A stretch of DNA of 38,043 bases, taken from the IMG/VR virus record IMGVR_UViG_2537561603_000006, positions 1 to 38,043 of that record. One strand, given 5' to 3'. Position 1 is the stretch's first letter. Every line of letters starts with the position of its first letter. The notes under the pieces are model-generated. The model was not told the DNA's origin. It did no database searches and saw only the letters and a list, made by a program, of their open reading frames with translations. Position numbers and translations under genes: made by a program. Shown in pieces: positions 5,356 through 30,125 of this stretch. This stretch comes from a virus. Taxonomy: Duplodnaviria; Heunggongvirae; Uroviricota; Caudoviricetes.

Positions 5356-7191
5356 TTACCTGCCAAAGCGCGTATAGCCAACATCATGGCTGACATCAAA
5401 ACCGCTGGATCGCGTTTCCATAACCCGCATACCCGGAGGCGAATTCACAAAAGAGACCTTGATCTCACCATCAACTTTTGGCGCAGAAGCTTTGTTAATC
5501 ATGAAGGGATTCGGGCCTGTGGCATCGGAGGCGTTGTTTGACTGAGCCAGATCTACCGCCGGATAAGGTGTGTATCCCCGCGCCGGTATTCCCGTCCCAT
5601 AAGCATCATAAGCACCCGCGCCCCACTGCGCAGAGTTAATGGCATCGACCGTGTCACCGGAACTGTCGGTAAACCACTCAATAATTGGCTTCAGCTTATC
5701 CCACATATCCTGAAACCACTTAACAACCGGTCCCCAGTTATTGATCACCATCCCCAGCGGCGACCAGGCAAAAACCTTCTTCAGAAGTTCCCAGCCAGCC
5801 TCAAAATAAGGACCAATGGTTTCCCAGAGCTTCTTAAAATAAGGTCCGACAACATCCCAGTTAGTGATAATTAATCCCGCAGCCAGAGCAATCGCCGTCG
5901 CAATCATGCCAATCGGCGTCATCGACATAATCCTGCTGACAATACTGATGGCACTGCCCACGCCCATCAATCCCAGTTTCAGAATCGCAAGACCGGCAGC
6001 AAGCCCGACGACGCCGCGAATACCCCGGGGATTTTCATCCGCAAACTTCGTGAATTTCTCCCCCAACACCCCCAGCCACTGCGTGATATTTTTGGCGTCA
6101 CCAGAAAATGCGCCGCCAATAGCTGCAAGACCGTTAGTTGCGGTCCCCGTCATTGCCTCCCACAGGTTGGACAGCGTACCAAGCTGAGCCTGAACACGTT
6201 TATTCAGGCTGGCCTGTTTATTCATCTTCTGCTGGCTCTGATCGTAGCCATCCTTTCCTTTATCGATTAGTGCATTGACCACCTGAAGGGTTTCGGCATC
6301 ATCACCAAATATTGCCTTAAGTACACCGGTTCGCTTAACGTCGGTCAGTTTTCGCAGCTTTGCCAGTTGCCTGAACATGTTATCAAGACCGCCAAAACTC
6401 CCTTTGCCATCAGTAAAATCGAGCTGTACCCCGAGTTTCTGGCGGGCCATGATTTTATTGACGTCCCTGATTTTCTTAACGCTTAATCCGGACTGGATAA
6501 CTTTTCGCAGGGCATTACCTGCCGACTCCCCGTTCATCCCCATCTGATCCATCATGACACTGATGGGGGCAAGACTCTGTGCAGCCTGAAGACCGTCCTT
6601 ATTCACCATCTTCAGAACAGAGCTGGTTTTAGTGAAGAATGACAGCATGTTGGTGTCGTCAACGCCCAGATAAAACGCCTTCTGAATTGTGTCGAACAGC
6701 CCCATCATGTCTTCTGAGGCCGTTCCGGTAGCATCCTGCATCTTTGCGGCAAACTCGGCAGCCGCTTCCGGTGTTTTTTTCAGTTGTACCGCAAGATAAG
6801 CTGTCGCTTTACCCACACCACCCAGAATGTTTTCTGCCGGGATCCCCTGACGCACCAGCATCTGCATCATGTTCTGGAAATCAGCCGTTGTACCGGGTAG
6901 CTGGTTACCCAGGCCAATAGCCAGTTTATTGATGTCCTGAAAGCTCTTTCCAACCTCGCCGTTCGCATCCATCATGGCGACTTTCAGCCCGGTAGCGGCG
7001 TTTTCCTGATCGGCATAAGATTTCAGGGAAAGCGTCAGCCCCGCTGCCAGTCCGCCACCAAGCGCCAGCCCACCCTGTGACGCCTCTTCCGCCTGGCGTT
7101 TAAATCCCCGGATTTTCTTTTGCATTTTCGACAGCGCGGGAGAAAGCCTGTCGACACCGGTGATCAACGCCTTAAGCTCAAATTCAGCCAT
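5356..7191 (-). CDS. Tail tape measure protein
   Basis: 611 aa, Ala/Gly-rich with a hydrophobic central segment; sits between chaperone and DNA-circulation gene. Confidence 0.85.
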   Translation of the reverse strand: MAEFELKALITGVDRLSPALSKMQKKIRGFKRQAEEASQGGLALGGGLAAGLTLSLKSYADQENAATGLKVAMMDANGEVGKSFQDINKLAIGLGNQLPGTTADFQNMMQMLVRQGIPAENILGGVGKATAYLAVQLKKTPEAAAEFAAKMQDATGTASEDMMGLFDTIQKAFYLGVDDTNMLSFFTKTSSVLKMVNKDGLQAAQSLAPISVMMDQMGMNGESAGNALRKVIQSGLSVKKIRDVNKIMARQKLGVQLDFTDGKGSFGGLDNMFRQLAKLRKLTDVKRTGVLKAIFGDDAETLQVVNALIDKGKDGYDQSQQKMNKQASLNKRVQAQLGTLSNLWEAMTGTATNGLAAIGGAFSGDAKNITQWLGVLGEKFTKFADENPRGIRGVVGLAAGLAILKLGLMGVGSAISIVSRIMSMTPIGMIATAIALAAGLIITNWDVVGPYFKKLWETIGPYFEAGWELLKKVFAWSPLGMVINNWGPVVKWFQDMWDKLKPIIEWFTDSSGDTVDAINSAQWGAGAYDAYGTGIPARGYTPYPAVDLAQSNNASDATGPNPFMINKASAPKVDGEIKVSFVNSPPGMRVMETRSSGFDVSHDVGYTRFGR

Positions 7192-20690: not shown

Positions 20691-21743
20691 TTATTTCCCC
20701 ACCAGTTCACTTACCTCTTTCACCGTCTGGTTAAACCGATCTGACTCAAGCTCAACACCTAACGCCCGACGCCCCAGCGCCATTGCTGCTTTTATTGTGG
20801 AACCGGATCCCATAAAGAAATCAGCAACCAGATCGCCTGGTCGACTACTGGCATTAATTATTTGCCGGAGCATATCCGCCGGTTTCTCACACGGATGTTT
20901 ACCCGGGTAGAACTGAACGGGTTTATGCGTCCAGACATCGGTATAAGGCACGGAGACTGATACGGAGAAATAACGCCGGAGAGATTTAAACTCATCCAGC
21001 AAATCAGAATATTTGCGATTCAGTGAATCATAAGATGCCACCAGCTGGTGGTGTGGTTGTTCCAGTTGTTGTTCCTGAAACTTCTCTGCCACTACACGGG
21101 AAAACAGTGCCTGCAACTTCCGGTAGTCAGCCTCATTCGGCAACTGCCACTGACTGGCACCAAACCAGTGGGAAACCATATTTTTCTTACCAGTGGCTTC
21201 GGCAATCTGTTTTGCCGTTATACCCAGTTCGGCACGAGCATCCCTGAAATACGAAATCAGCGGTGCCATTATGTGCTGTTTGAGTTGACTTTCTTTTGCC
21301 GCATAGCCGTCACTTTTGCCGCGATATGGTCCCTGGTAATGTTCAGCAAACAGAACGCGTTCTGTTGCGGGAAAATATGCGCGCAGACTTTCTTTATTAC
21401 ACCCGTTCCATCGTCCGGACGGCTTCGCCCAGATAATATGGTTAAGAACGTTGAAACGTTCACGCATCATGATCTCGATATCAGATGCGAGGCGATGTCC
21501 ACAGAACAGGTAAAGGCTTCCGGCAGGTTTCAGCACCCGCCAGAACTGGGCCAGACAGTGGTCCAGCCACTTCAGGTAATCTTCGTCCCCTTTCCACTGA
21601 TTGTCCCAACCGTTGGGTTTCACCTTGAAGTACGGCGGATCGGTAACAATCAGGTCAATGGAATCATCAGGCAGGGACTGAATAAAATGCAGGCAATCAG
21701 CGTTGATTAAATCAACACTGTTTATTTTTACAGTATTTTTCAT
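20691..21743 (-). CDS. DNA methyltransferase (N6-adenine/N4-cytosine, DPPY class)
   Basis: 350 aa; motif IV ...DLIVTDPPYF... near N-terminus; no adjacent nuclease gene. Confidence 0.85.
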   Translation of the reverse strand: MKNTVKINSVDLINADCLHFIQSLPDDSIDLIVTDPPYFKVKPNGWDNQWKGDEDYLKWLDHCLAQFWRVLKPAGSLYLFCGHRLASDIEIMMRERFNVLNHIIWAKPSGRWNGCNKESLRAYFPATERVLFAEHYQGPYRGKSDGYAAKESQLKQHIMAPLISYFRDARAELGITAKQIAEATGKKNMVSHWFGASQWQLPNEADYRKLQALFSRVVAEKFQEQQLEQPHHQLVASYDSLNRKYSDLLDEFKSLRRYFSVSVSVPYTDVWTHKPVQFYPGKHPCEKPADMLRQIINASSRPGDLVADFFMGSGSTIKAAMALGRRALGVELESDRFNQTVKEVSELVGK

Positions 21744-21893: not shown

Positions 21894-22097
21894 TTACTGG
21901 CAGCGTCTGAATTTATTCCCATACCCGCCGCTATCCTTCGCCAGACCCGCCAAAACTAACTGCGTCAGTATCAACTGACACCGGGCTTCGCTTACCCCGG
22001 TAATACTCGTCATCGCACGGGGCGTTATCCACTTGTCAGCAGGTAAGAAATGAAGGACTGTGGCGGCGGTTTCTGTCATATCTTGCTGTTTTAGCAT
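21894..22097 (-). CDS. Small hypothetical protein, possible winged-helix
   Basis: 67 aa ORF between the tR'-like terminator and the methyltransferase. Confidence 0.35.
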   Translation of the reverse strand: MLKQQDMTETAATVLHFLPADKWITPRAMTSITGVSEARCQLILTQLVLAGLAKDSGGYGNKFRRCQ

Positions 22098-22217: not shown

Positions 22218-22246
22218 ACAAAAAAACCCGCTCGGAGGCGGGTTTA
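22218..22246 (-). terminator. Intrinsic terminator (tR'-like candidate)
   Basis: Minus-strand RNA AAACCCGCCUCCGAGCGGGUUUUUUU: GC stem plus U7 tract. Confidence 0.5.
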
Positions 22247-22356: not shown

Positions 22357-23241
22357 ATGAAATGCATCCGAAAACATCCAGCAATAGCTTATACAGTAAT
22401 TATTTTAGTTTTTGCTTTAATATACAATTTCACTTGGAGCGTCAATCCAGATTCTTTCATTAAAAACAACGTTCTCAACTCTACACCTGTATATGATGCC
22501 GTTAATTTAGCATATGCGAACAATGAGGTAAAAAAAGAAGATCCTGTCAGTGTTTCGAGGGAAGTATTTGCAGAGCAAATTTTAACACTTACAAATCAAT
22601 TCAATAAGATAACAATTGAAAACTTAGAACTTGAAAAAACATTATCTCAACAGCAAGAAAAATTAAAACAAATTAGTGAAAGACAATCAATAAAGTGGGG
22701 CGAAAACACCAAAAAATACATAGCAGACAGTTTGAAAGATTTACACAAAACGCTTATCACTAAAAATAGTGAACGTACTGCCATAACATCTTTAAAAAAC
22801 AAAACAAATGAAAGTCAGATTAACATTATGCTGGCCGACAAAGATGAAGAAATAGCCAAAATAAACCTTGAAATAGCGTATAAAGAGAATGATGCTAATG
22901 TCTATATCTTATCTCATGTCGGCGACTTTAATGATCCAATAATCGTTAATGAGCTTGACGCAATCAATAAAGAAATTGAGAAAACAAGAACAAAAATAAT
23001 AAACAATAAAAAGAAAATAATGGAGATAAGGAATAAATCTCAATCTATGCTGGAGAAACTCAAAAAAGATGACCTTAACTTTTGGGATTTCTTATTTTAT
23101 AGCATAGGAATATCTACAACGACCACCTTTGGTGATTTGTTAGCAAATTCAAGACTTATCAGACTGATAGTTTGCGTGCAACTTTTACTATCAATTATAG
23201 TTTTAGCTAACGTAACTCAAAGATTTTTATCAAAAAAATAA
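22357..23241 (+). CDS. Membrane protein with potassium-channel-like pore loop (TM1, about 210 aa coiled-coil insert, pore helix, filter-like TTTTFGD, TM2)
   Basis: 294 aa; N-terminal TM AIAYTVIILVFALIYNF; C-terminus FWDFLFYSIGISTTTTFGDLLANSRLIRLIVCVQLLLSIIVLANV aligns position for position with the channel pore-helix/filter/inner-helix pattern; AT-rich; opposite strand to flanking phage genes. Confidence 0.6.
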   Translation: MKCIRKHPAIAYTVIILVFALIYNFTWSVNPDSFIKNNVLNSTPVYDAVNLAYANNEVKKEDPVSVSREVFAEQILTLTNQFNKITIENLELEKTLSQQQEKLKQISERQSIKWGENTKKYIADSLKDLHKTLITKNSERTAITSLKNKTNESQINIMLADKDEEIAKINLEIAYKENDANVYILSHVGDFNDPIIVNELDAINKEIEKTRTKIINNKKKIMEIRNKSQSMLEKLKKDDLNFWDFLFYSIGISTTTTFGDLLANSRLIRLIVCVQLLLSIIVLANVTQRFLSKK

Positions 23242-23248
23242 AAAACAA

Positions 23249-23268
23249 AGCCCTCAAAAATGAGGGCT
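23249..23268. terminator. Bidirectional hairpin terminator between Q and the channel-like gene
   Basis: AGCCCTCA-AAAA-TGAGGGCT perfect 8-bp stem; T-run on the minus strand after the hairpin, A/T-rich on the plus strand. Confidence 0.55.
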
Positions 23269-23278
23269 AATTTAAACC

Positions 23279-23638
23279 TTAAGATAAGAACGATAAAATC
23301 CCGTCCAAAAATCCTAGTGCAGTTTGAAGTTCTTTTCTGACAGTACCATCTGAACATTTTCGTTTCTTTGCGATTGTACGGAGTGAAATACCAATAACAA
23401 AGTGAGCAATTAATAATTCATATTCTTCTGGTTTATATTTACGCAACCGCGCCACACAACCGTCTATCATGATCCCTTCATCATCATCACACTGAAGGCG
23501 TGTTTTTTTACCATGAGGTAAAAGCCCCTTGAAACCAGCCGCTATCGGCTGCCAGTCCACACCGCTGTTATCTGCTGCTGCCCATGCTCCCCAGCGGTCT
23601 AACACCTCGTACATATCACGCATCAAATCTCTCCACAA
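23279..23638 (-). CDS. Q: Late antiterminator Q (QuuD-like)
   Basis: 119 aa; ...VLDRWGAWAAADNSGVDWQPIAAGFKGLLP... matches the DLP12 QuuD-type Q family as remembered; upstream of the lysis genes. Confidence 0.75.
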   Translation of the reverse strand: MWRDLMRDMYEVLDRWGAWAAADNSGVDWQPIAAGFKGLLPHGKKTRLQCDDDEGIMIDGCVARLRKYKPEEYELLIAHFVIGISLRTIAKKRKCSDGTVRKELQTALGFLDGILSFLS

Positions 23639-23640
23639 AA

Positions 23641-24636
23641 TCAGGCCAGCACACCAATTGCCAGCGCGCGATCGATAAATCGAAAAATCAGCTCCAGTTG
23701 GGAACCATACTTCTCTTCAAACGCCACGGTGTCCGCATGCAGCTCGTCGTGATGCTTTCTGCACAATGGCAACACAAAGAGGTCATGCGCTTTTGTACCC
23801 ATTCCACCCTGACCGTGACCTATCAGGTGATGGGGATCATCAGCAGGCTTTCCACAACATGCACACGGCTGCCTCTTAACCCAGCACGTGTACTTTTCGT
23901 TAACCCAGCGGCGACGTTTTGGGCGTAACATAAAAAACTCTGGCGACTCCGGATCCACTTTCAGTGCCAGTACCTTTTTCGCTTTATCCTGGATGATGCT
24001 GGTGGCAGGAACTGAAGGCACAAGGTCACTTTCCCGGGTGACAGACTGCACAACAGGCTTCGGTAATCTCAGTGCCTTACGGGCTGCACTTTCCGGTAAG
24101 GCATCCGCCAGGTCATTACGAATCAGCCACCAGCACAGTTCCGGCATTGTCACAACGTGACTATCATCAAAACCGAGATCCCGACGCACAACAGACAACA
24201 CCCAGCGGGCACAGTTATCCGTTGCCATTGATTCCAGCCGTTCCGTGAACTGATCGCGCAGCTGGTTATCGCAGTGCCAGCACAGACGGATTGCGCCCGG
24301 AGCGTGTCGCATTGTGGTCATGTTCTCGCTGTGCCAGTCGGAATGAGGCCACTGGCAGCCTTTTTCACGAAGTAACCAGCTTTCAAGACATTCCACTCCA
24401 CCAGCACGACGGATCACTGCCTCATTGCGGAACACGGCCCGAACGGCAGGATCATCCGCCAGCGGTTGTGATGCCGCCGGAACGGCACCACTGGCGAAAG
24501 ATGAATAACGTTCCGGCTCAGGCTCCAGCAGGACACGCCCCTGCATAAACAAGGGCATCAGCTCTGAACCTGGTCTGAACAATACGATCCCCATACGCGG
24601 GGCAATTTCAGGGGTCAGTAGTGCTCTCACGGTCAC
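23641..24636 (-). CDS. DUF968-like protein (YdfU-like)
   Basis: 331 aa; Cys/His-rich C-terminus ...CWVKRQPCACCGKPADDPHHLIGHGQGGMGTKAHDLFVLPLCRKHHDELH... typical of the family. Confidence 0.55.
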   Translation of the reverse strand: MTVRALLTPEIAPRMGIVLFRPGSELMPLFMQGRVLLEPEPERYSSFASGAVPAASQPLADDPAVRAVFRNEAVIRRAGGVECLESWLLREKGCQWPHSDWHSENMTTMRHAPGAIRLCWHCDNQLRDQFTERLESMATDNCARWVLSVVRRDLGFDDSHVVTMPELCWWLIRNDLADALPESAARKALRLPKPVVQSVTRESDLVPSVPATSIIQDKAKKVLALKVDPESPEFFMLRPKRRRWVNEKYTCWVKRQPCACCGKPADDPHHLIGHGQGGMGTKAHDLFVLPLCRKHHDELHADTVAFEEKYGSQLELIFRFIDRALAIGVLA

Positions 24637-24637
24637 C

Positions 24638-25447
24638 TCAATGAACGGTATCGAGCAGCTTTAACAGCTCAGGGAATCGGGATTCGAAGAAATGCGGCTG
24701 CGTCTCGCGCGGATTTGCGGGACTGGTGATGTTCTTGCCGAACATGCAGCCTTTCGCCGTCAGCGACCAGAATTTTTTGATGTTGTTAATCGCAGTGCGG
24801 CTGTATCGTTCACGTTGTTCAACGATCCCCAGCTTCGCCATCTGGTGATATGCCTGATTAGCTGTCAGGCGGATACCATACTGCTTCAGCAGTGCACTCA
24901 ATGACAGCGTGGGGCGGCTTGAGCCATCAGGCGCGTCAGCAGGAGCATCAATGGCATAGCGCGGTGCCAGATTCGGTAAGCCAACAGCCTCCTGGAGTTT
25001 CTGACAGGCACCAAGCACTGAAGAGTTAGACAGGTTTAACTCCCGGCGCATAAAGTCCAGCAGGATCACGCCAGCCTGCATCTTGTCAGCAGCCTGTCCG
25101 GATAATTTTTCCGGTGCGCTGGTTACCATATCGAAAGTACGGATCACCTTCAGATGGAATGACGGGCTGATCCACATTGCATAGGCATACACCAGTTCCT
25201 TGCAGACATACGTTCCCCGTTCATTTCCCCCATGAATCACACTCACCGGGTCAACACCCAAATTCTGGGTGTTGGTCAATTCATGAACAAGCTCAACAGT
25301 TTGTTGGCTGGAAAGAAACTTTCCCGGCTCCTTGGTTCTGGCATTTGCACCAGATGCTACTGCTGCGCGATGCAGATCGTTCAGGCTGTAACGCCCATAA
25401 GCATCACGACGAACTTCAATACCATCAATGACCATCAGATTATTCAT
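24638..25447 (-). CDS. KilA-N domain protein (antirepressor-like)
   Basis: 269 aa; N-terminal region with KilA-N-like pattern; nin-region position. Confidence 0.6.
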   Translation of the reverse strand: MNNLMVIDGIEVRRDAYGRYSLNDLHRAAVASGANARTKEPGKFLSSQQTVELVHELTNTQNLGVDPVSVIHGGNERGTYVCKELVYAYAMWISPSFHLKVIRTFDMVTSAPEKLSGQAADKMQAGVILLDFMRRELNLSNSSVLGACQKLQEAVGLPNLAPRYAIDAPADAPDGSSRPTLSLSALLKQYGIRLTANQAYHQMAKLGIVEQRERYSRTAINNIKKFWSLTAKGCMFGKNITSPANPRETQPHFFESRFPELLKLLDTVH

Positions 25448-25466: not shown

Positions 25467-25856
25467 TCAGGCGGCTGCACCCGCCGTTTTCTCGTACTTA
25501 CTGATAGTGATCTCGACCTTCCCTTCCGGGATAACCGGTCCCCACTCCACCAGCATTCTTTTCACCTGACTGTCGTCTTCCCACACACCCGCGTGGGTCA
25601 GGGCGTCAAACAGCGCCTTGTTATAGTTGTCCAGATCGCGGATCCGGTTATCCGGAGGAAACAACACGATCTCCACTGAAGCAGGTGCCGACGTTGGTTT
25701 CGGCAGACGACGTAACTGCTCAACTATTGCTGCGCACGCCGCGCTCTGGAATTTTCGCCCCGCCGCGCTTATCAGGCTCTTACCAGCAAACGCCCCTTTG
25801 TTGGGGTGTCGCCAGTACGTGTTCACGCTGGGCGGGAAAGGCAAGATCAGCTTCAT
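25467..25856 (-). CDS. rusA: RusA-type Holliday junction resolvase
   Basis: 129 aa; ...LPFPPSVNTYWRH... and ...RDLDNYNKALFDALTHAGVWEDDSQV... match RusA conserved motifs. Confidence 0.85.
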   Translation of the reverse strand: MKLILPFPPSVNTYWRHPNKGAFAGKSLISAAGRKFQSAACAAIVEQLRRLPKPTSAPASVEIVLFPPDNRIRDLDNYNKALFDALTHAGVWEDDSQVKRMLVEWGPVIPEGKVEITISKYEKTAGAAA

Positions 25857-26179
25857 ACTTTCAGGCCTCTCTCATGTAACCAGTGGGCTGCACGCAGCCT
25901 TGCGTTTTCCTCACCGGCAAGCAGTGAGCGGATAATCCCGACCGCCTCGCTGTCGTCGTCCTTCACTGCGGTATGAAGCGTTATCCCCCGGGCCACGCCA
26001 CGCTTTATCGTAATGACGCCTTTTTTCTCCAGTGCGCGAAGATGCTCCACCGCTGCATTCACTGAACGGTATCCCAGCATGGTTGCCACCTCCTGATTGG
26101 TTGGCGGGAAGCCACGTTCTTTCTGGTAAGAAATCAGCATATCCAGCACCTGCTGCTGGCATTGAGTTAACGTCGTCAT
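25853..26179 (-). CDS. LexA N-terminal DNA-binding-domain-like protein (no peptidase domain)
   Basis: 108 aa; LTQCQQQVLDMLISYQKERGFPPTNQEVATMLGYRSVNAAVEHLRALEKKGVI parallels LexA [53 protein letters not shown] (recalled); ORF ends before any S24 domain. Confidence 0.55.
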   Translation of the reverse strand: MTTLTQCQQQVLDMLISYQKERGFPPTNQEVATMLGYRSVNAAVEHLRALEKKGVITIKRGVARGITLHTAVKDDDSEAVGIIRSLLAGEENARLRAAHWLHERGLKV

Positions 26180-26862
26180 GCCGCCATCTCCCTGACCAGT
26201 TTTTCCGCCTGCTGGCGAACCTGCACCAGAAAGGCTTCACCACATGCCTCAAGTTCATCGCGCCCGATGTAGCTGATTGCCGGTCCCTTCCAGGTCTTGT
26301 CGAAAACAGCAATAGCACCAGCGAAGAAAGCTCCTGTCGGCACCTGCTTCTCATCCTTCGGGATAAACCAGGCAGGCAGTTCAAAACCAATACGCCCGCG
26401 AATAAAAGCAATATGGTCCGCATCTTCCGGCCACCACACTTCGCTGGTGGCAGCTTTGATCAGGAAAACATAGCGCCCGCCCTTATCACGCATGGCACTG
26501 GCATGTTTCATGATGTAACGCATGCCGGTGATGTATTGCCCCTCATGCTGACTGGCGCGGCTGTATGGGGGATTACCAAAGGCAACACCTTTAAGCTCCG
26601 CAAGACGTTCTGACCAGTCATGCGCCAGCGCGTTATCTTCCGCCGTGTAATACGCGGCACATTTGGCGTTATCACCGTCAGTGAACAGATCCAGAACAAA
26701 CGGGCCAAACAGGGTGTTAATTCCCCAGAAAATGTTGTCCGGCGTGCGCCACTGATCGCCCACTTCCTTCAGTTCATGGGCTGGTTTGTTCCGCAGTTCC
26801 ACCAGCGCCTGGCAATATTTATTACTCATTAAGCCCCCACGTAATTCCCTGACAGATACCAC
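26176..26862 (-). CDS. Phage-type Dam N6-adenine methyltransferase (orphan)
   Basis: 228 aa; motif ...VAFGNPPYS... (NPPY); no adjacent nuclease gene. Confidence 0.8.
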   Translation of the reverse strand: MVSVRELRGGLMSNKYCQALVELRNKPAHELKEVGDQWRTPDNIFWGINTLFGPFVLDLFTDGDNAKCAAYYTAEDNALAHDWSERLAELKGVAFGNPPYSRASQHEGQYITGMRYIMKHASAMRDKGGRYVFLIKAATSEVWWPEDADHIAFIRGRIGFELPAWFIPKDEKQVPTGAFFAGAIAVFDKTWKGPAISYIGRDELEACGEAFLVQVRQQAEKLVREMAA

Positions 26863-27323
26863 TCTTCACCCGATGCAGCGCGCTTGCTGCTTTTCCGTAA
26901 GCACCGCTCACGGCGCGCCAGAAAATTGTTTCGTTCTGACTGGGAGTGGCTTTCACGGAATGCCGCCATCCACACGGTTGCAGCACGACGGTATAAGCCC
27001 TTGGACTCCAGTTCTTCAGCCTGGCGGGTCAGGCACAAAATCACCCGGGGATCGTTAGTGCCGACATAGAAATTACGCACAGGTTTGGTTTCACGAACTG
27101 GTTGCGGTTCCGGCTCCTGCGCTCTCTCAGTCAGGCGCGGGAAATGTCTGCGTGTATCTCCTTCACAACGGTGAGCCACACGCCCACTCTGACGTAACTT
27201 GCTTGCAGACTGCAGAACGCGCTGCCGTGAGTAACCTGCAAAAGCATCCGCAATGTCTCCGGAAGTACACCCCGGATGGGCTTCAATGAATTTCTGAACT
27301 TCATTCAAAAGACTCATAATCAC
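26829..27323 (-). CDS. Hypothetical basic protein, replication/nin region
   Basis: 164 aa ORF downstream of the O-like gene; family not recognised. Confidence 0.45.
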   Translation of the reverse strand: MIMSLLNEVQKFIEAHPGCTSGDIADAFAGYSRQRVLQSASKLRQSGRVAHRCEGDTRRHFPRLTERAQEPEPQPVRETKPVRNFYVGTNDPRVILCLTRQAEELESKGLYRRAATVWMAAFRESHSQSERNNFLARRERCLRKSSKRAASGEEWYLSGNYVGA

Positions 27324-28261
27324 CCCCTGAATCCTGCCGGGATCTGGCTGTAGTCCACGTTGTCGTAACTGGATTTGAAGTACGGGTCTTCGCGTTTTTC
27401 GGTGTACGTGCTTACGGACGGCGATAAGCGCAGGGAAAGCTCATCCCATTTTTCCCGCAGCTTCGACGGGCTGAGCACGTTACGGCACCAGAACGGATCG
27501 CGGCTGACGCGGCTGTACATCTCGCAGATTTGTTTATGAGTACGCCCATCCTGTACACACATCAGGCGAATTTCGTTTGCCCAGGCTGTCCAGTTCGGTT
27601 CTTTAGGACGTACCACTTCGCCGTCACATTCGGCGGCCTGCTCGTACAGAGCGATGATTTTTTTCCAGAGCCACTGTGCGCAGGTCAAATCATCCTGCGT
27701 TCCCCACTGGCGCTTTTTAGGGCTGAATACAACCGCATCAGGATGGCGAGTTAAAAACTCTTGTTCAGCCGTCTGCGTGTCCGGTTGCGAAGCGTCCGGA
27801 CGAGAAGTTTTTTTATCTGACGGATCATGTTTTGATTTTACTGACGGATCCCCGCCAGATTCTGACGGGTGAAAACCCGCTTTTTTGCCAGATTTCGACG
27901 CATCAAATTTTGACTGGTCAGATTTTGATGCGTCAGATTTTGACGGGTCAGAATCTGACAGTTGAGAAAATGCCGCTGCCTGAAGCTTCGCAACGTTAAG
28001 CTGATAAACATTCGACGCATTGCGGTTACCCTGGCGACGCGCCTTACGCGTTAACCAGCCTTCCGCTTCCAGCCGTGCGATAGCCGTTCTGACGGTGCTC
28101 ATCCCCGCGCCAATCTGGCGGGCAATGGTTTCAATTGATGGCCAGCACACACCTTCGTCATTACTGAAATCAGCCAGGCGGGCCATAATTGCCACGCTGG
28201 ATAACTTCATGCCTGACGCAGCGCAACCATCCCATACATAGCCGGTTAATTTAGTGCTCAT
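27320..28261 (-). CDS. Replication initiation protein (lambda O-like, N-terminal HTH) with internal origin iterons
   Basis: 313 aa; N-terminal HTH-like region; central SDSDPSKSDASKSDQSKFDASKSGKK repeats encoded by the iteron DNA. Confidence 0.7.
   Translation of the reverse strand: MSTKLTGYVWDGCAASGMKLSSVAIMARLADFSNDEGVCWPSIETIARQIGAGMSTVRTAIARLEAEGWLTRKARRQGNRNASNVYQLNVAKLQAAAFSQLSDSDPSKSDASKSDQSKFDASKSGKKAGFHPSESGGDPSVKSKHDPSDKKTSRPDASQPDTQTAEQEFLTRHPDAVVFSPKKRQWGTQDDLTCAQWLWKKIIALYEQAAECDGEVVRPKEPNWTAWANEIRLMCVQDGRTHKQICEMYSRVSRDPFWCRNVLSPSKLREKWDELSLRLSPSVSTYTEKREDPYFKSSYDNVDYSQIPAGFRG
27811..27961. repeat. Iteron array (candidate ori) inside the O-like gene
   Basis: At least seven direct repeats of about 14-16 bp of the form (T/C)CAGAT(T/C)(T/C)TGACGG. 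Confidence 0.6.
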
Positions 28262-28609
28262 GACCGACCTCTATTTCCCTGAATTTACGACGAAACTGTT
28301 CGAGCGGGCTGAAGCACTCATGCTCATAGCCTTCGCGGAGGTAGATAACCCGTTGTGTTTCCGGTTCCCAACGAATGACTCTGACGGGCACTCCGTAGTG
28401 ATCTTTGAACCAGCGGTTAACTTGTCGCAAAGGACTGTCTCCTTTTGCCGGTTGAAATCACCCACAGCCCACTCTGCAAAGCTGTGGGTTACAATTTCCC
28501 TGTCACCTGGTACATTCACTGCATAGCAATACTCCACCTTCGCTTTTCCACCCGGTACAGGAAGTGCAATCAGTTGCGAGCGACGGTAGTGTGTTGTTAA
28601 ACTGTTCAT
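28244..28609 (-). pseudogene. Hypothetical gene needing a frame change to reach its apparent C-terminus
   Basis: ATG at 28609 opens [55 protein letters not shown]...; a second frame open from about 28462 (…[53 protein letters not shown]…) runs to a stop at 28244 with no start codon of its own. Confidence 0.3.
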
Positions 28610-29220
28610 GCGTTAGTTTCTCCACAACCAGAAGCAATCGACGCCACGACGCCCGGAGCTGCACACTCGCGGGCGTCATTACTTTCTGAAATGCAAAAAA
28701 TTTTGTAGACAAGTGCTGCATGCTCCTGCAGCTTCGAAATTGAGAGATACAGCTCGTCGTTAATTGCTGTCTTCTCATGCGGTTCCACTACACCGTCTTC
28801 GATTGCTGAACGAATCTGTTTTGAATAACTGCCGATCTGTTCAATGACTTCCAGCAGACGCTGGTTAATATCGGCGTTGTCCACATCCTCGACGTCAGGA
28901 AGAGACACAAAGACGCCATTTGCAGACTGCGCCACAGCATCAGCAATGAAGTGAGTTCCACCAGCACGTTGCAAAATCATTGCCCATCCCAGCGGGAAAA
29001 TCTGATCGCCATCAGCACGAAGGCGGTTAAATAATGCGTTCTCTGTTACATCCAGCCAGTCAGCTGCTTCAGCGTAACCACCCGGCAACTTTGCGATAGT
29101 TTTTCTGACAGCTTTCACGTACCACTCAGGCTGTTTTTCTACTTTCCAGTGATGCTTACCCACGGTTAGCCTCATCGTTCTGTGGTTTCTGTTAATCGAT
29201 TTATCCATTAGATTTTTCAT
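28606..29220 (-). CDS. Hypothetical regulatory protein in the cII position
   Basis: ORF immediately downstream of cro; start ambiguous (track start 29277 overlaps cro by 77 nt; internal Met at 29220 or 29208 more likely); family not recognised. Confidence 0.4.
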
Positions 29221-29401
29221 AAAGCTCAGGTTTAAATGGCAACCGTCCGCAAGTTCTATATGCAGCTTCTGCTGCACGTCCTTTTGGAATTAACTGGCCC
29301 GGACGGTTTCGCCACTGATAAACGGCTTCAGTTGTTATGCCGAAAAAAGCAGCAACTTTCTCAATACTGCCGAAGTAGCTTTCGATATCGTCAGTTGTCA
29401 T
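29201..29401 (-). CDS. Cro-like HTH regulator
   Basis: 66 aa, HTH region AAFFGITTEAVYQWRN; GGAGGG Shine-Dalgarno upstream; divergent from cI across an operator region. Confidence 0.7.
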   Translation of the reverse strand: MTTDDIESYFGSIEKVAAFFGITTEAVYQWRNRPGQLIPKGRAAEAAYRTCGRLPFKPELYEKSNG

Positions 29402-29498
29402 ACGCCCTCCAAACTAAGTTTTATTAGATGCTAATTACAAATCTATCTTTGGTCAATAAAAACTAAGATTACTTAGCAATTCAAGAAATGGTGCTCCT
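29402..29498. promoter_or_regulatory. Divergent promoter/operator region between cro and cI
   Basis: AT-rich 97 bp with repeated CTAAG/CTTAG half-sites: CTAAGTTTTATTAG (29414-29427) and CTAAGATTACTTAG (29463-29476). Confidence 0.5.
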
Positions 29499-30125
29499 AT
29501 GGAAACGGTTGGTCAGCGTATAAAAGCTCTGAGAAGAGTTACCAGAACGTCCCAGAAAGAATTGGGTAAATTTTGTGGAGTAAGCGACGTTGCTGTGGGG
29601 TACTGGGAGAAAGACATCAATACCCCTGGTGGGGAGGCACTTTCGAAATTAGCGAAGTTCTTCAATACGTCAATAGATTACATTCTTTATGGTGCTGAGT
29701 TTGAAGGCAAACTCGTCACAAACATGCGCAGAGTTCCTGTAATATCGTGGGTTCAGGCTGGGCAGTTTACTGAGTGCAGGGCAGCAGAAGTGTTTAGTGA
29801 AGTGGACAAGTGGGTAGATACATCATTAAAGATTGGTGATAACTCATTTGCATTAGAGGTTAAAGGTGACTCCATGGCTAACCCTAATGGCCTCCCAACA
29901 ATACCAGAAGGCGCAACAGTGATTGTAGATCCAGATGCAGAACCTCGTCATGGAAAAATAGTCATCGCTCGACTTGATGGAACAAACGAAGCTACAGTAA
30001 AAAAATTAGTCATCGATGGCCCTCAAAAGTTTTTAGTGCCATTAAATCCTCGGTATCCCAACATCCCTATCAATGGTAATTGCCTTATCATTGGTGTAGT
30101 CAAAGGAGTTCAATACGAACTCTAA
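29499..30125 (+). CDS. CI-like repressor (N-terminal HTH, C-terminal S24 LexA-like peptidase domain)
   Basis: 208 aa; N-terminal HTH (QKELGKFCGVSDVAVGYWEKD); C-terminal ...ALEVKGDSMANPNGLPTIPEGATVIVDPD... with Ser-Lys dyad context. Confidence 0.85.
   Translation: METVGQRIKALRRVTRTSQKELGKFCGVSDVAVGYWEKDINTPGGEALSKLAKFFNTSIDYILYGAEFEGKLVTNMRRVPVISWVQAGQFTECRAAEVFSEVDKWVDTSLKIGDNSFALEVKGDSMANPNGLPTIPEGATVIVDPDAEPRHGKIVIARLDGTNEATVKKLVIDGPQKFLVPLNPRYPNIPINGNCLIIGVVKGVQYEL

Follow-up and report, generated by a model that had tools for sequence, protein, structure and literature searches.

In Escherichia coli, LexA contacts DNA through helix III of its N-terminal domain, with Ser39, Asn41, Ala42, Glu44 and Glu45 as the contacting residues (PMC3091678), and it dimerises via its S24 domain (PMC8565304). 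The free N-terminal domain reportedly retains SOS-gene binding and repression until it is degraded by ClpXP (PMC10584840). A phage-borne relative has been described in the Bacillus tectivirus GIL01, where gp6, a truncated LexA homologue of 66 amino acids (aa), binds the non-LexA palindrome GaCACAn nTGTGaC over the −35 of the late promoter P3 and activates P3 (PMC6182141). Here we describe a LexA-N-terminal-domain-only gene encoding 108 aa (positions 25853-26179, minus strand, ATG start; open reading frame (ORF) listing, Pfam PF01726, PHROG 362) in a 38,043-nucleotide stretch of viral DNA (Caudoviricetes; IMG/VR record IMGVR_UViG_2537561603_000006), which is referred to throughout as the window and is an SfV/e14-like lambdoid prophage. 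We favour, at a probability of roughly 0.35, the reading that its product, insensitive to RecA, stands in for LexA at CTGT-type boxes, being made as a delayed-early protein and dimerised by its tail. The family appears to be pham 237 (pfam01726, 15 phages) of a survey of Stx phages, which placed that pham among cI-like "LexA" phams and did not separate its role (PMC8136144). Predictions of stand-alone LexA-domain proteins extend to mycobacteriophage Wildcat, tectiviruses and many uncultured phages. In the full-text literature on LexA-like and truncated LexA homologues in phages, we found no functional study of the window protein, and gp6 was the only characterised analogue found. The family is already catalogued, yet uncharacterised.

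The 108-aa protein contains the full LexA winged helix without the protease half, and the match is far beyond chance. Residues 1-65 aligned with the whole of the Pfam LexA_DNA_bind profile (PF01726, positions 1-65 of 65; E=2.9e-19, 69 bits against a cut-off of 23.7). The NCBIfam lexA equivalog TIGR00498 was matched over profile positions 1-91 of 203 only, at 70.8 bits and under its cut-off of 110.95, which shows that the peptidase half is missing. The Pfam scan gave no match to Peptidase_S24 (PF00717) in the protein, and no S24 remnant lies 3' of the gene, whose stop codon overlaps the start of RusA. An earlier reading of the locus from its letters and ORFs (the sequence-only reading) had described a LexA N-terminal winged helix that ends before S24, which these matches bear out; it overlooked a conserved two-helix tail. 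It had further held that RecA-stimulated autocleavage would be impossible, and we agree: because the S24 domain is absent, the protein is, as judged from its sequence, incapable of self-cleavage driven by activated RecA (RecA*).

Structural comparison supported the same domain assignment. The AlphaFold model, built on 30 family members, had a mean predicted local distance difference test score (pLDDT) of 81.7 and placed helices at residues 6-22, 28-35 and 40-52 and wing strands at 56-58 and 66-68, within a winged helix-turn-helix of residues 1-68 (25976-26179, minus strand). The best solved-structure match was the E. coli LexA N-terminal domain 1lea (E=7e-16, residues 2-69). Using Foldseek, residues 1-68 were superposed on the LexA-DNA complex chains 3jso with a root-mean-square deviation of 1.1 Å over 67-68 residues at 50-51% identity; for 1lea and 3jso together, the deviation was 1.1-1.3 Å at 50% identity. 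The PHROG 362 profile matched residues 1-108 at positions 1-106 of 106 (E=1.4e-59), C-terminal tail included. The PHROG label for the family is "transcriptional repressor" and the NCBI name is "LexA family transcriptional regulator"; the clusters that carry the NCBI name have 782 and 2527 members and share 97-98% identity with the window protein. PADLOC gave no meaningful defence-system match.

The recognition helix (SVNAAVEHLRAL, residues 39-50; 26030-26065, minus strand) was placed by HMMER alignment to LexA and tabulated across the family. It reads S39-V-N41-A42-A-V44-E45-H where LexA has S-P-N-A-A-E-E-H. Four of the five LexA contacts are identical (S39, N41, A42, E45), and the fifth, E44, is replaced by V. 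The wing segment R64-G65-I66 is the same as in LexA and invariant in the family. Because these contacts and the wing segment are kept, a CTGT-like half-site is a plausible and reasonable expectation for the E. coli-clade protein.

Beyond the winged helix, the alignments and the AlphaFold model delimit a family-specific tail of residues 77-108 (25856-25951, minus strand) with two predicted helices, modelled at 74-87 and 93-103. The linker at 71-75 was of low confidence, and the block of residues 81-100 had a pLDDT of about 84-85. In the family alignments, A97 never varies, and A93 and L101 almost never do; the window protein ends in …RGLKV. Both the tail and the length of the protein are kept at 40-50% identity across genera. 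The tail had no Pfam match and, by Foldseek, no match in the PDB. Proteins of the DtxR/MntR and Rrf2 types were among the weak Foldseek matches spanning the whole model, and in winged-helix regulators of these types the dimer-interface helices sit after the wing, similar to the placement of the tail. A different arrangement was seen in the metagenomic proteins P0156, P0160, P0164 and P0133 (141-164 aa), which carry two tandem LexA DNA-binding domains and neither S24 nor the tail. These look like covalent pseudo-dimers, a third way of pairing LexA winged helices, and the tandem duplication in P0156, P0160 and P0164 would fit a requirement for two DNA-binding domains at each site. Given that S24 is absent, that the tandem-domain proteins are tail-less, and that gp6 is tail-less and single-domain, the conserved amphipathic two-helix tail is the obvious candidate for a dimerisation element that would replace the S24 domain.

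The first tail helix also bears on the origin of the gene. Residues 79-90 (AVGIIRSLLAGE) aligned with the LexA linker and cleavage strand LPLVGRVAAGE by both HMMER and MAFFT, with A88-G89-E90 opposite LexA A84-G85-E86, of which A84-G85 is the scissile bond; a catalytic domain in cis is lacking. Other family members have NG, EG, ER, AE, TR, DD, AN or NN in place of AG, which is thus not a conserved dipeptide. This alignment suggests descent of the gene from a lexA cut just past the cleavage site. No donor lineage of the LexA domain was obvious: a scan of genome contigs gave mostly proteobacterial host lexA at 44-56% identity, and cluster names were uninformative.

The position of the gene in the window was used to consider its expression. 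Minus-strand genes follow the order cro-cII-like-DUF4222-replication protein-PerC-Dam-LexA-domain gene-RusA-KilA-N-DUF968-Q. Specifically, the upstream genes are cro (29201-29401, P22_Cro match), the cII-like gene (28606-29277, CP76), the replication protein (27320-28261, HTH_36), PerC (26829-27323) and, as the immediate neighbour, a Dam-family phage N-6-adenine methyltransferase (26176-26862; PF05869, E=2.1e-45). The downstream neighbour is the RusA Holliday-junction resolvase (25467-25856; PF05866, E=6.1e-15), followed by KilA-N (24638-25447), DUF968 (23641-24636) and Q (23279-23638, PF06530). The sequence and ORF coordinates gave an ATGA overlap on either side of the LexA-domain gene, one between the Dam stop and its start (26176-26179) and one between its stop and the RusA start (25853-25856), both on the minus strand. 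A consensus scan identified a candidate pR, TTGACC-17-TAGCAT, upstream of cro (29428-29456, minus strand), and gave no promoter-like site on the minus strand between this candidate (29456-29428) and the LexA-domain gene. Because of its place in the cro-to-Q operon, the ATGA overlaps on both sides and the lack of an internal promoter-like site, we infer that the gene would be expressed from the pR operon in the delayed-early phase that follows induction or infection, and would be silent in the repressed lysogen. The window also encodes a cI-type immunity repressor (29499-30125, plus strand) with HTH_3 and Peptidase_S24 domains (E=1.4e-27), in which the AG dipeptide, GDSM and VKKL are visible and which is divergent from cro. 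The sequence-only reading had spoken of an adjacent cI with an intact S24 domain; the domain is indeed intact, and the adjacency does not hold, as the two genes lie 3.3 kb apart on opposite strands. Between Q and the late operon lies a 294-aa gene (22357-23241, plus strand) with a lysine- and glutamate-rich centre and a C-terminal Ion_trans_2 match (E=2.5e-5). It is flanked by terminator-like hairpins at 23249-23268 and 22224-22245 and is probably a moron.

The gene is widespread and conserved. Of 5426 complete E. coli genomes, 2233 (about 41%) carry the 327-bp gene, and 2223 of these have 80% or more of its length; carriers include CFT073 and O157:H7 and O104:H4 strains. Near-identical proteins are encoded by the Shigella serotype-converting phages SfV (orf42), SfII and SfIV and by mEp460, phage cdtI, 15 Stx2c-converting phage records and Stx2a_1447/WGPS2. 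Relatives of about 105-135 aa, with PF01726 as essentially the sole recorded domain, are spread across Enterobacteriaceae, in prophages of Salmonella, Citrobacter, Cronobacter, Klebsiella, Enterobacter, Atlantibacter, Kosakonia and Hafnia. In Cronobacter, Atlantibacter and Salmonella, the order replication gene-PerC-methyltransferase-LexA-domain gene-RusA-Rha/ANT or KilA-N-DUF968-Q is maintained at 45-57% protein identity, and the 4-bp overlap with RusA is kept in the relatives examined; the Klebsiella clade has no RusA. The methyltransferase slot is filled by PF05869, PF02086 (D12-class) or PF00145 (C5), or is empty. Within E. coli, the methyltransferase is missing from CFT073 and many other strains, where PerC abuts the LexA-domain gene, and in each of the 29 full-length matches listed, RusA overlapped or adjoined the match. 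The pairwise ratio of nonsynonymous to synonymous substitution rates (dN/dS) was 0.02-0.25 among seven E. coli alleles, where divergence sufficed. A single inactivated copy was seen among these seven, in E. coli B1S11 (locus L017, 1501-1827), with a stop at codon 7; its prophage is disrupted by IS3, whose insertion truncates the KilA-N gene. The possibility that the gene is a truncated lexA remnant or a truncation artefact was ruled out by the conserved tail, synteny and dN/dS.

Two parts of this distribution were considered separately. In Klebsiella prophages, the order is a 27-bit SOS box-dinI-ORF-LexA-domain gene-ORF-DUF968. The homologue lies downstream of the SOS box and dinI with no strong terminator between, which suggests SOS-driven expression in this clade. 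In loci L005-L007 (about 5385-6393), the homologue downstream of the SOS box and dinI is 130 aa long and its recognition helix reads SSNAVLLH. A PARIS-like gene pair, AAA_15 and DUF4435, was observed a few kb from the Klebsiella homologue. Among Stx phages, all 15 matching "Stx2c-converting phage" records carry the gene and no "Stx2a-converting" record matched, a contrast confounded by wholly different early regions; 11 "Stx2a-converting" records share the methylase at the head of the late region and its SOS box (see below).

Under the favoured reading, the protein would be made from the cro-to-Q operon only after induction or infection, and two winged helices would be paired by the C-terminal helical hairpin in place of the S24 domain. 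The E. coli-clade protein would recognise CTGT-type LexA-box-like palindromes, the most likely specificity since the LexA helix III base contacts are nearly all kept. Once RecA* has destroyed the host repressor, the uncleavable protein would take the place of LexA and would act on the SOS genes of the host, on functions of co-resident elements that LexA controls, and on the phage's SOS box at the head of the late methylase. Such an SOS-damping role is mechanistically credible because the free LexA N-terminal domain is itself reported to bind and repress. A stronger version, which we consider doubtful, is that a phage-made, RecA-proof surrogate LexA re-closes LexA-box promoters after the loss of host LexA and cI, silencing host SOS functions together with the LexA-controlled antirepressors, colicins and lysis genes of competing prophages and plasmids that share the cell.

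Candidate target sites were sought with an approximate SOS-box position weight matrix (PWM) built from about 26 E. coli boxes, which scores those boxes at 12.7-26.8 bits. One strong LexA-type site, CACTGTTTATTTTTACAGTA, was found at 21716-21735. Its score of 22.3 bits compares with a maximum of 21.0 and a 95th percentile of 16.0 in 200 shuffles, and it is the only strong site in the window. No SOS box was found near the LexA-domain gene in the PWM scan of the window, and there was no sign of autoregulation. The box lies across codons 3-9 of the PF01555 DNA methylase gene at the head of the late region (20691-21743, minus strand), and no convincing promoter was found beside it. phiP27, phiNP, Stx2a_1447 and Salmonella prophages all keep the box, with variation in the adjacent codons. 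Probably the box serves host LexA, and it is possibly a candidate site for the 108-aa protein; since it occurs in phages without the gene, it is not assignable as the protein's operator. Just upstream of the methylase lies a 67-aa ORF (21894-22097, minus strand), whose positional counterpart in phiP27 has the annotation TrmB-family regulator; the ORF may encode a second small DNA-binding protein in the late leader.

Several observations weigh against a LexA stand-in. The single SOS box of the window is also present in phiP27 and phiNP, both of which are without the LexA-domain gene. CTGT/ACAG palindromes were not enriched in the window at any spacing of 0-20, and the PWM scan gave no SOS box within 12 kb in the Cronobacter loci. 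Recognition-helix positions 44/45 differ between clades (VE, AE, FE, ND, TD, LL). To our knowledge, the LexA box is identical in all these enterobacterial hosts. Varying contact residues against a constant host box fit clade-specific phage operators better than a shared host target.

Operators of other types were looked for as inverted repeats, using perfect repeats with 8-bp arms in the window and four divergent loci. The repeats found were rejected as operators, being terminators, replication-origin iterons or within coding sequence. A perfect 18-bp palindrome, AACAGAACGCGTTCTGTT, was noted at 21349-21366 in the methylase coding sequence; its ACAG…CTGT form is the SOS box inverted. An inverted pair of GTCAGA(T/A)T(T/C)TGAC repeats at 27932-27959, in the replication gene, presumably represents origin iterons, and the motif also occurs in an Atlantibacter prophage (L011, 4157-4184). 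The cI-cro operators are CTAAG-type palindromes and not CTGT-type.

It is possible, and in our view almost as likely as the LexA stand-in, that the protein works, as gp6 does, as a transcription factor devoted to the phage. The LexA fold would have been borrowed while its specificity shifted to a private operator, for example at a late-region or moron promoter, and the protein would activate or repress phage genes with no effect on the host SOS response. This would explain why positions 44/45 diversify between clades while synteny stays constant, and why the Cronobacter loci lack SOS boxes; stand-alone LexA-domain proteins are, moreover, common in unrelated phages, and gp6 offers a precedent in which a truncated LexA homologue activates the late promoter P3 (PMC6182141). 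An operator of this kind was not apparent, however, as neither a conserved non-coding palindrome nor a clade-specific operator was found near the gene or in the late leader, where the SOS box inside the methylase start is the sole candidate, and five divergent loci had no non-coding palindrome in common. The E. coli clade also keeps four of the five LexA contacts, unlike gp6, and lambdoid late transcription is already regulated by Q.

The sequence-only reading had proposed a non-inducible repressor or a decoy that tunes the SOS response or prophage induction. In the first role the protein would help to silence the prophage; in the second it would sequester RecA* or LexA and thereby adjust induction within the lysogen. 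The lack of cleavage machinery and the PHROG label of transcriptional repressor would agree with either, but we consider both improbable. The gene is on the lytic strand in the cro-to-Q operon, translationally coupled to Dam and RusA through its ATGA overlaps, 3.3 kb from cI and with no promoter-like site of its own found, and the operators at cI-cro are of the CTAAG and not the CTGT type. These points speak against the silencing role in particular. The C-terminal domain of LexA carries both the RecA* contact and dimerisation, and with this domain missing neither route of sequestration is available, which makes the decoy unlikely. A still less probable idea treats the tail as a pseudo-substrate, with residues 79-90 docking in trans in the S24 site of host LexA or phage cI, where they would be cut or would block self-cleavage. 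The alignment of A88-G89-E90 with the LexA cleavage site lends itself to this, and intermolecular cleavage by the C-terminal domains of LexA and cI has been reported; the AG dipeptide is nevertheless not conserved in the family, and the segment is predicted to be helical and not strand-loop. Finally, the inactivated allele with a stop at codon 7 in the IS3-disrupted prophage would suit a decaying, functionless remnant of a captured lexA. This is effectively refuted by the conservation data, namely the dN/dS of 0.02-0.25, the maintenance of length, tail and synteny at 40-50% identity across genera, and the presence of the gene, nearly always at 80% or more of its length, in 2233 of 5426 complete E. 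coli genomes.

The assignment matters for annotation as well as for biology. Labels such as "LexA repressor", or the lumping of this family with cI-type repressors, hide its inability to respond to RecA. If the protein occupies SOS boxes, as a stand-in for LexA would, induced prophages would actively rewrite the host DNA-damage response, with a bearing on antibiotic-triggered release of toxin and phage and on competition among co-resident prophages. In the stronger, surrogate form of this reading, the protein would let the induced phage monopolise its host, making it an inter-prophage competition device as widespread as the gene (about 41% of complete E. coli genomes), and it could contribute to differences in inducibility between Stx phage types. 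If the protein instead serves a private operator, it would be an unrecognised regulator in an otherwise well-mapped lambdoid early operon, and would add a second example, of independent origin, of a viral transcription factor made from the LexA fold.

Among the nearest known systems is E. coli LexA itself. The window protein shares its winged helix, with S39, N41, A42, E45 and R64-G65-I66, and the alignment continues through the linker to the cleavage-site A-G-E. In contrast to LexA, it lacks S24 and with it self-cleavage, the RecA* response and LexA-type dimerisation; it has V44 in place of E, and a 32-residue helical tail instead of the C-terminal domain. The gene differs from E. coli lexA in having no upstream SOS box and in being phage-borne, within a lytic operon. 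The N-terminal cleavage fragment of LexA (residues 1-84) is likewise without a C-terminal domain, and some SOS-box binding and repression have been reported for it (PMC10584840). That fragment is a transient product removed by ClpXP, whereas the phage protein is a gene product with an extra tail and another C-terminus. The cI-type repressors (HTH_3 and S24) often share the database label "LexA family" with the window protein. They differ in their HTH_3 fold and intact S24 domain, and cI is divergent from cro and maintains lysogeny, whereas the LexA-domain gene is part of the nin region and shares its strand with cro and Q.

GIL01 gp6 resembles the window protein in being a phage-encoded LexA DNA-binding domain without a protease, expressed from an early gene and not subject to RecA-driven cleavage. 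At 66 aa, gp6 has no tail and no second domain, whereas the window protein has 108 aa and a tail. K38 of gp6, which is essential for its binding, falls at N41 of LexA and of the window protein in the MAFFT alignment, and BLASTP of gp6 against the window protein gave no alignment. On these grounds, the LexA fold appears to have been captured separately in the two cases. GIL01 lysogeny is held by host LexA together with gp7, whereas cI, Cro and Q are all encoded by the window phage itself. The two proteins differ in architecture and in the type of phage that carries them, and probably in specificity as well.

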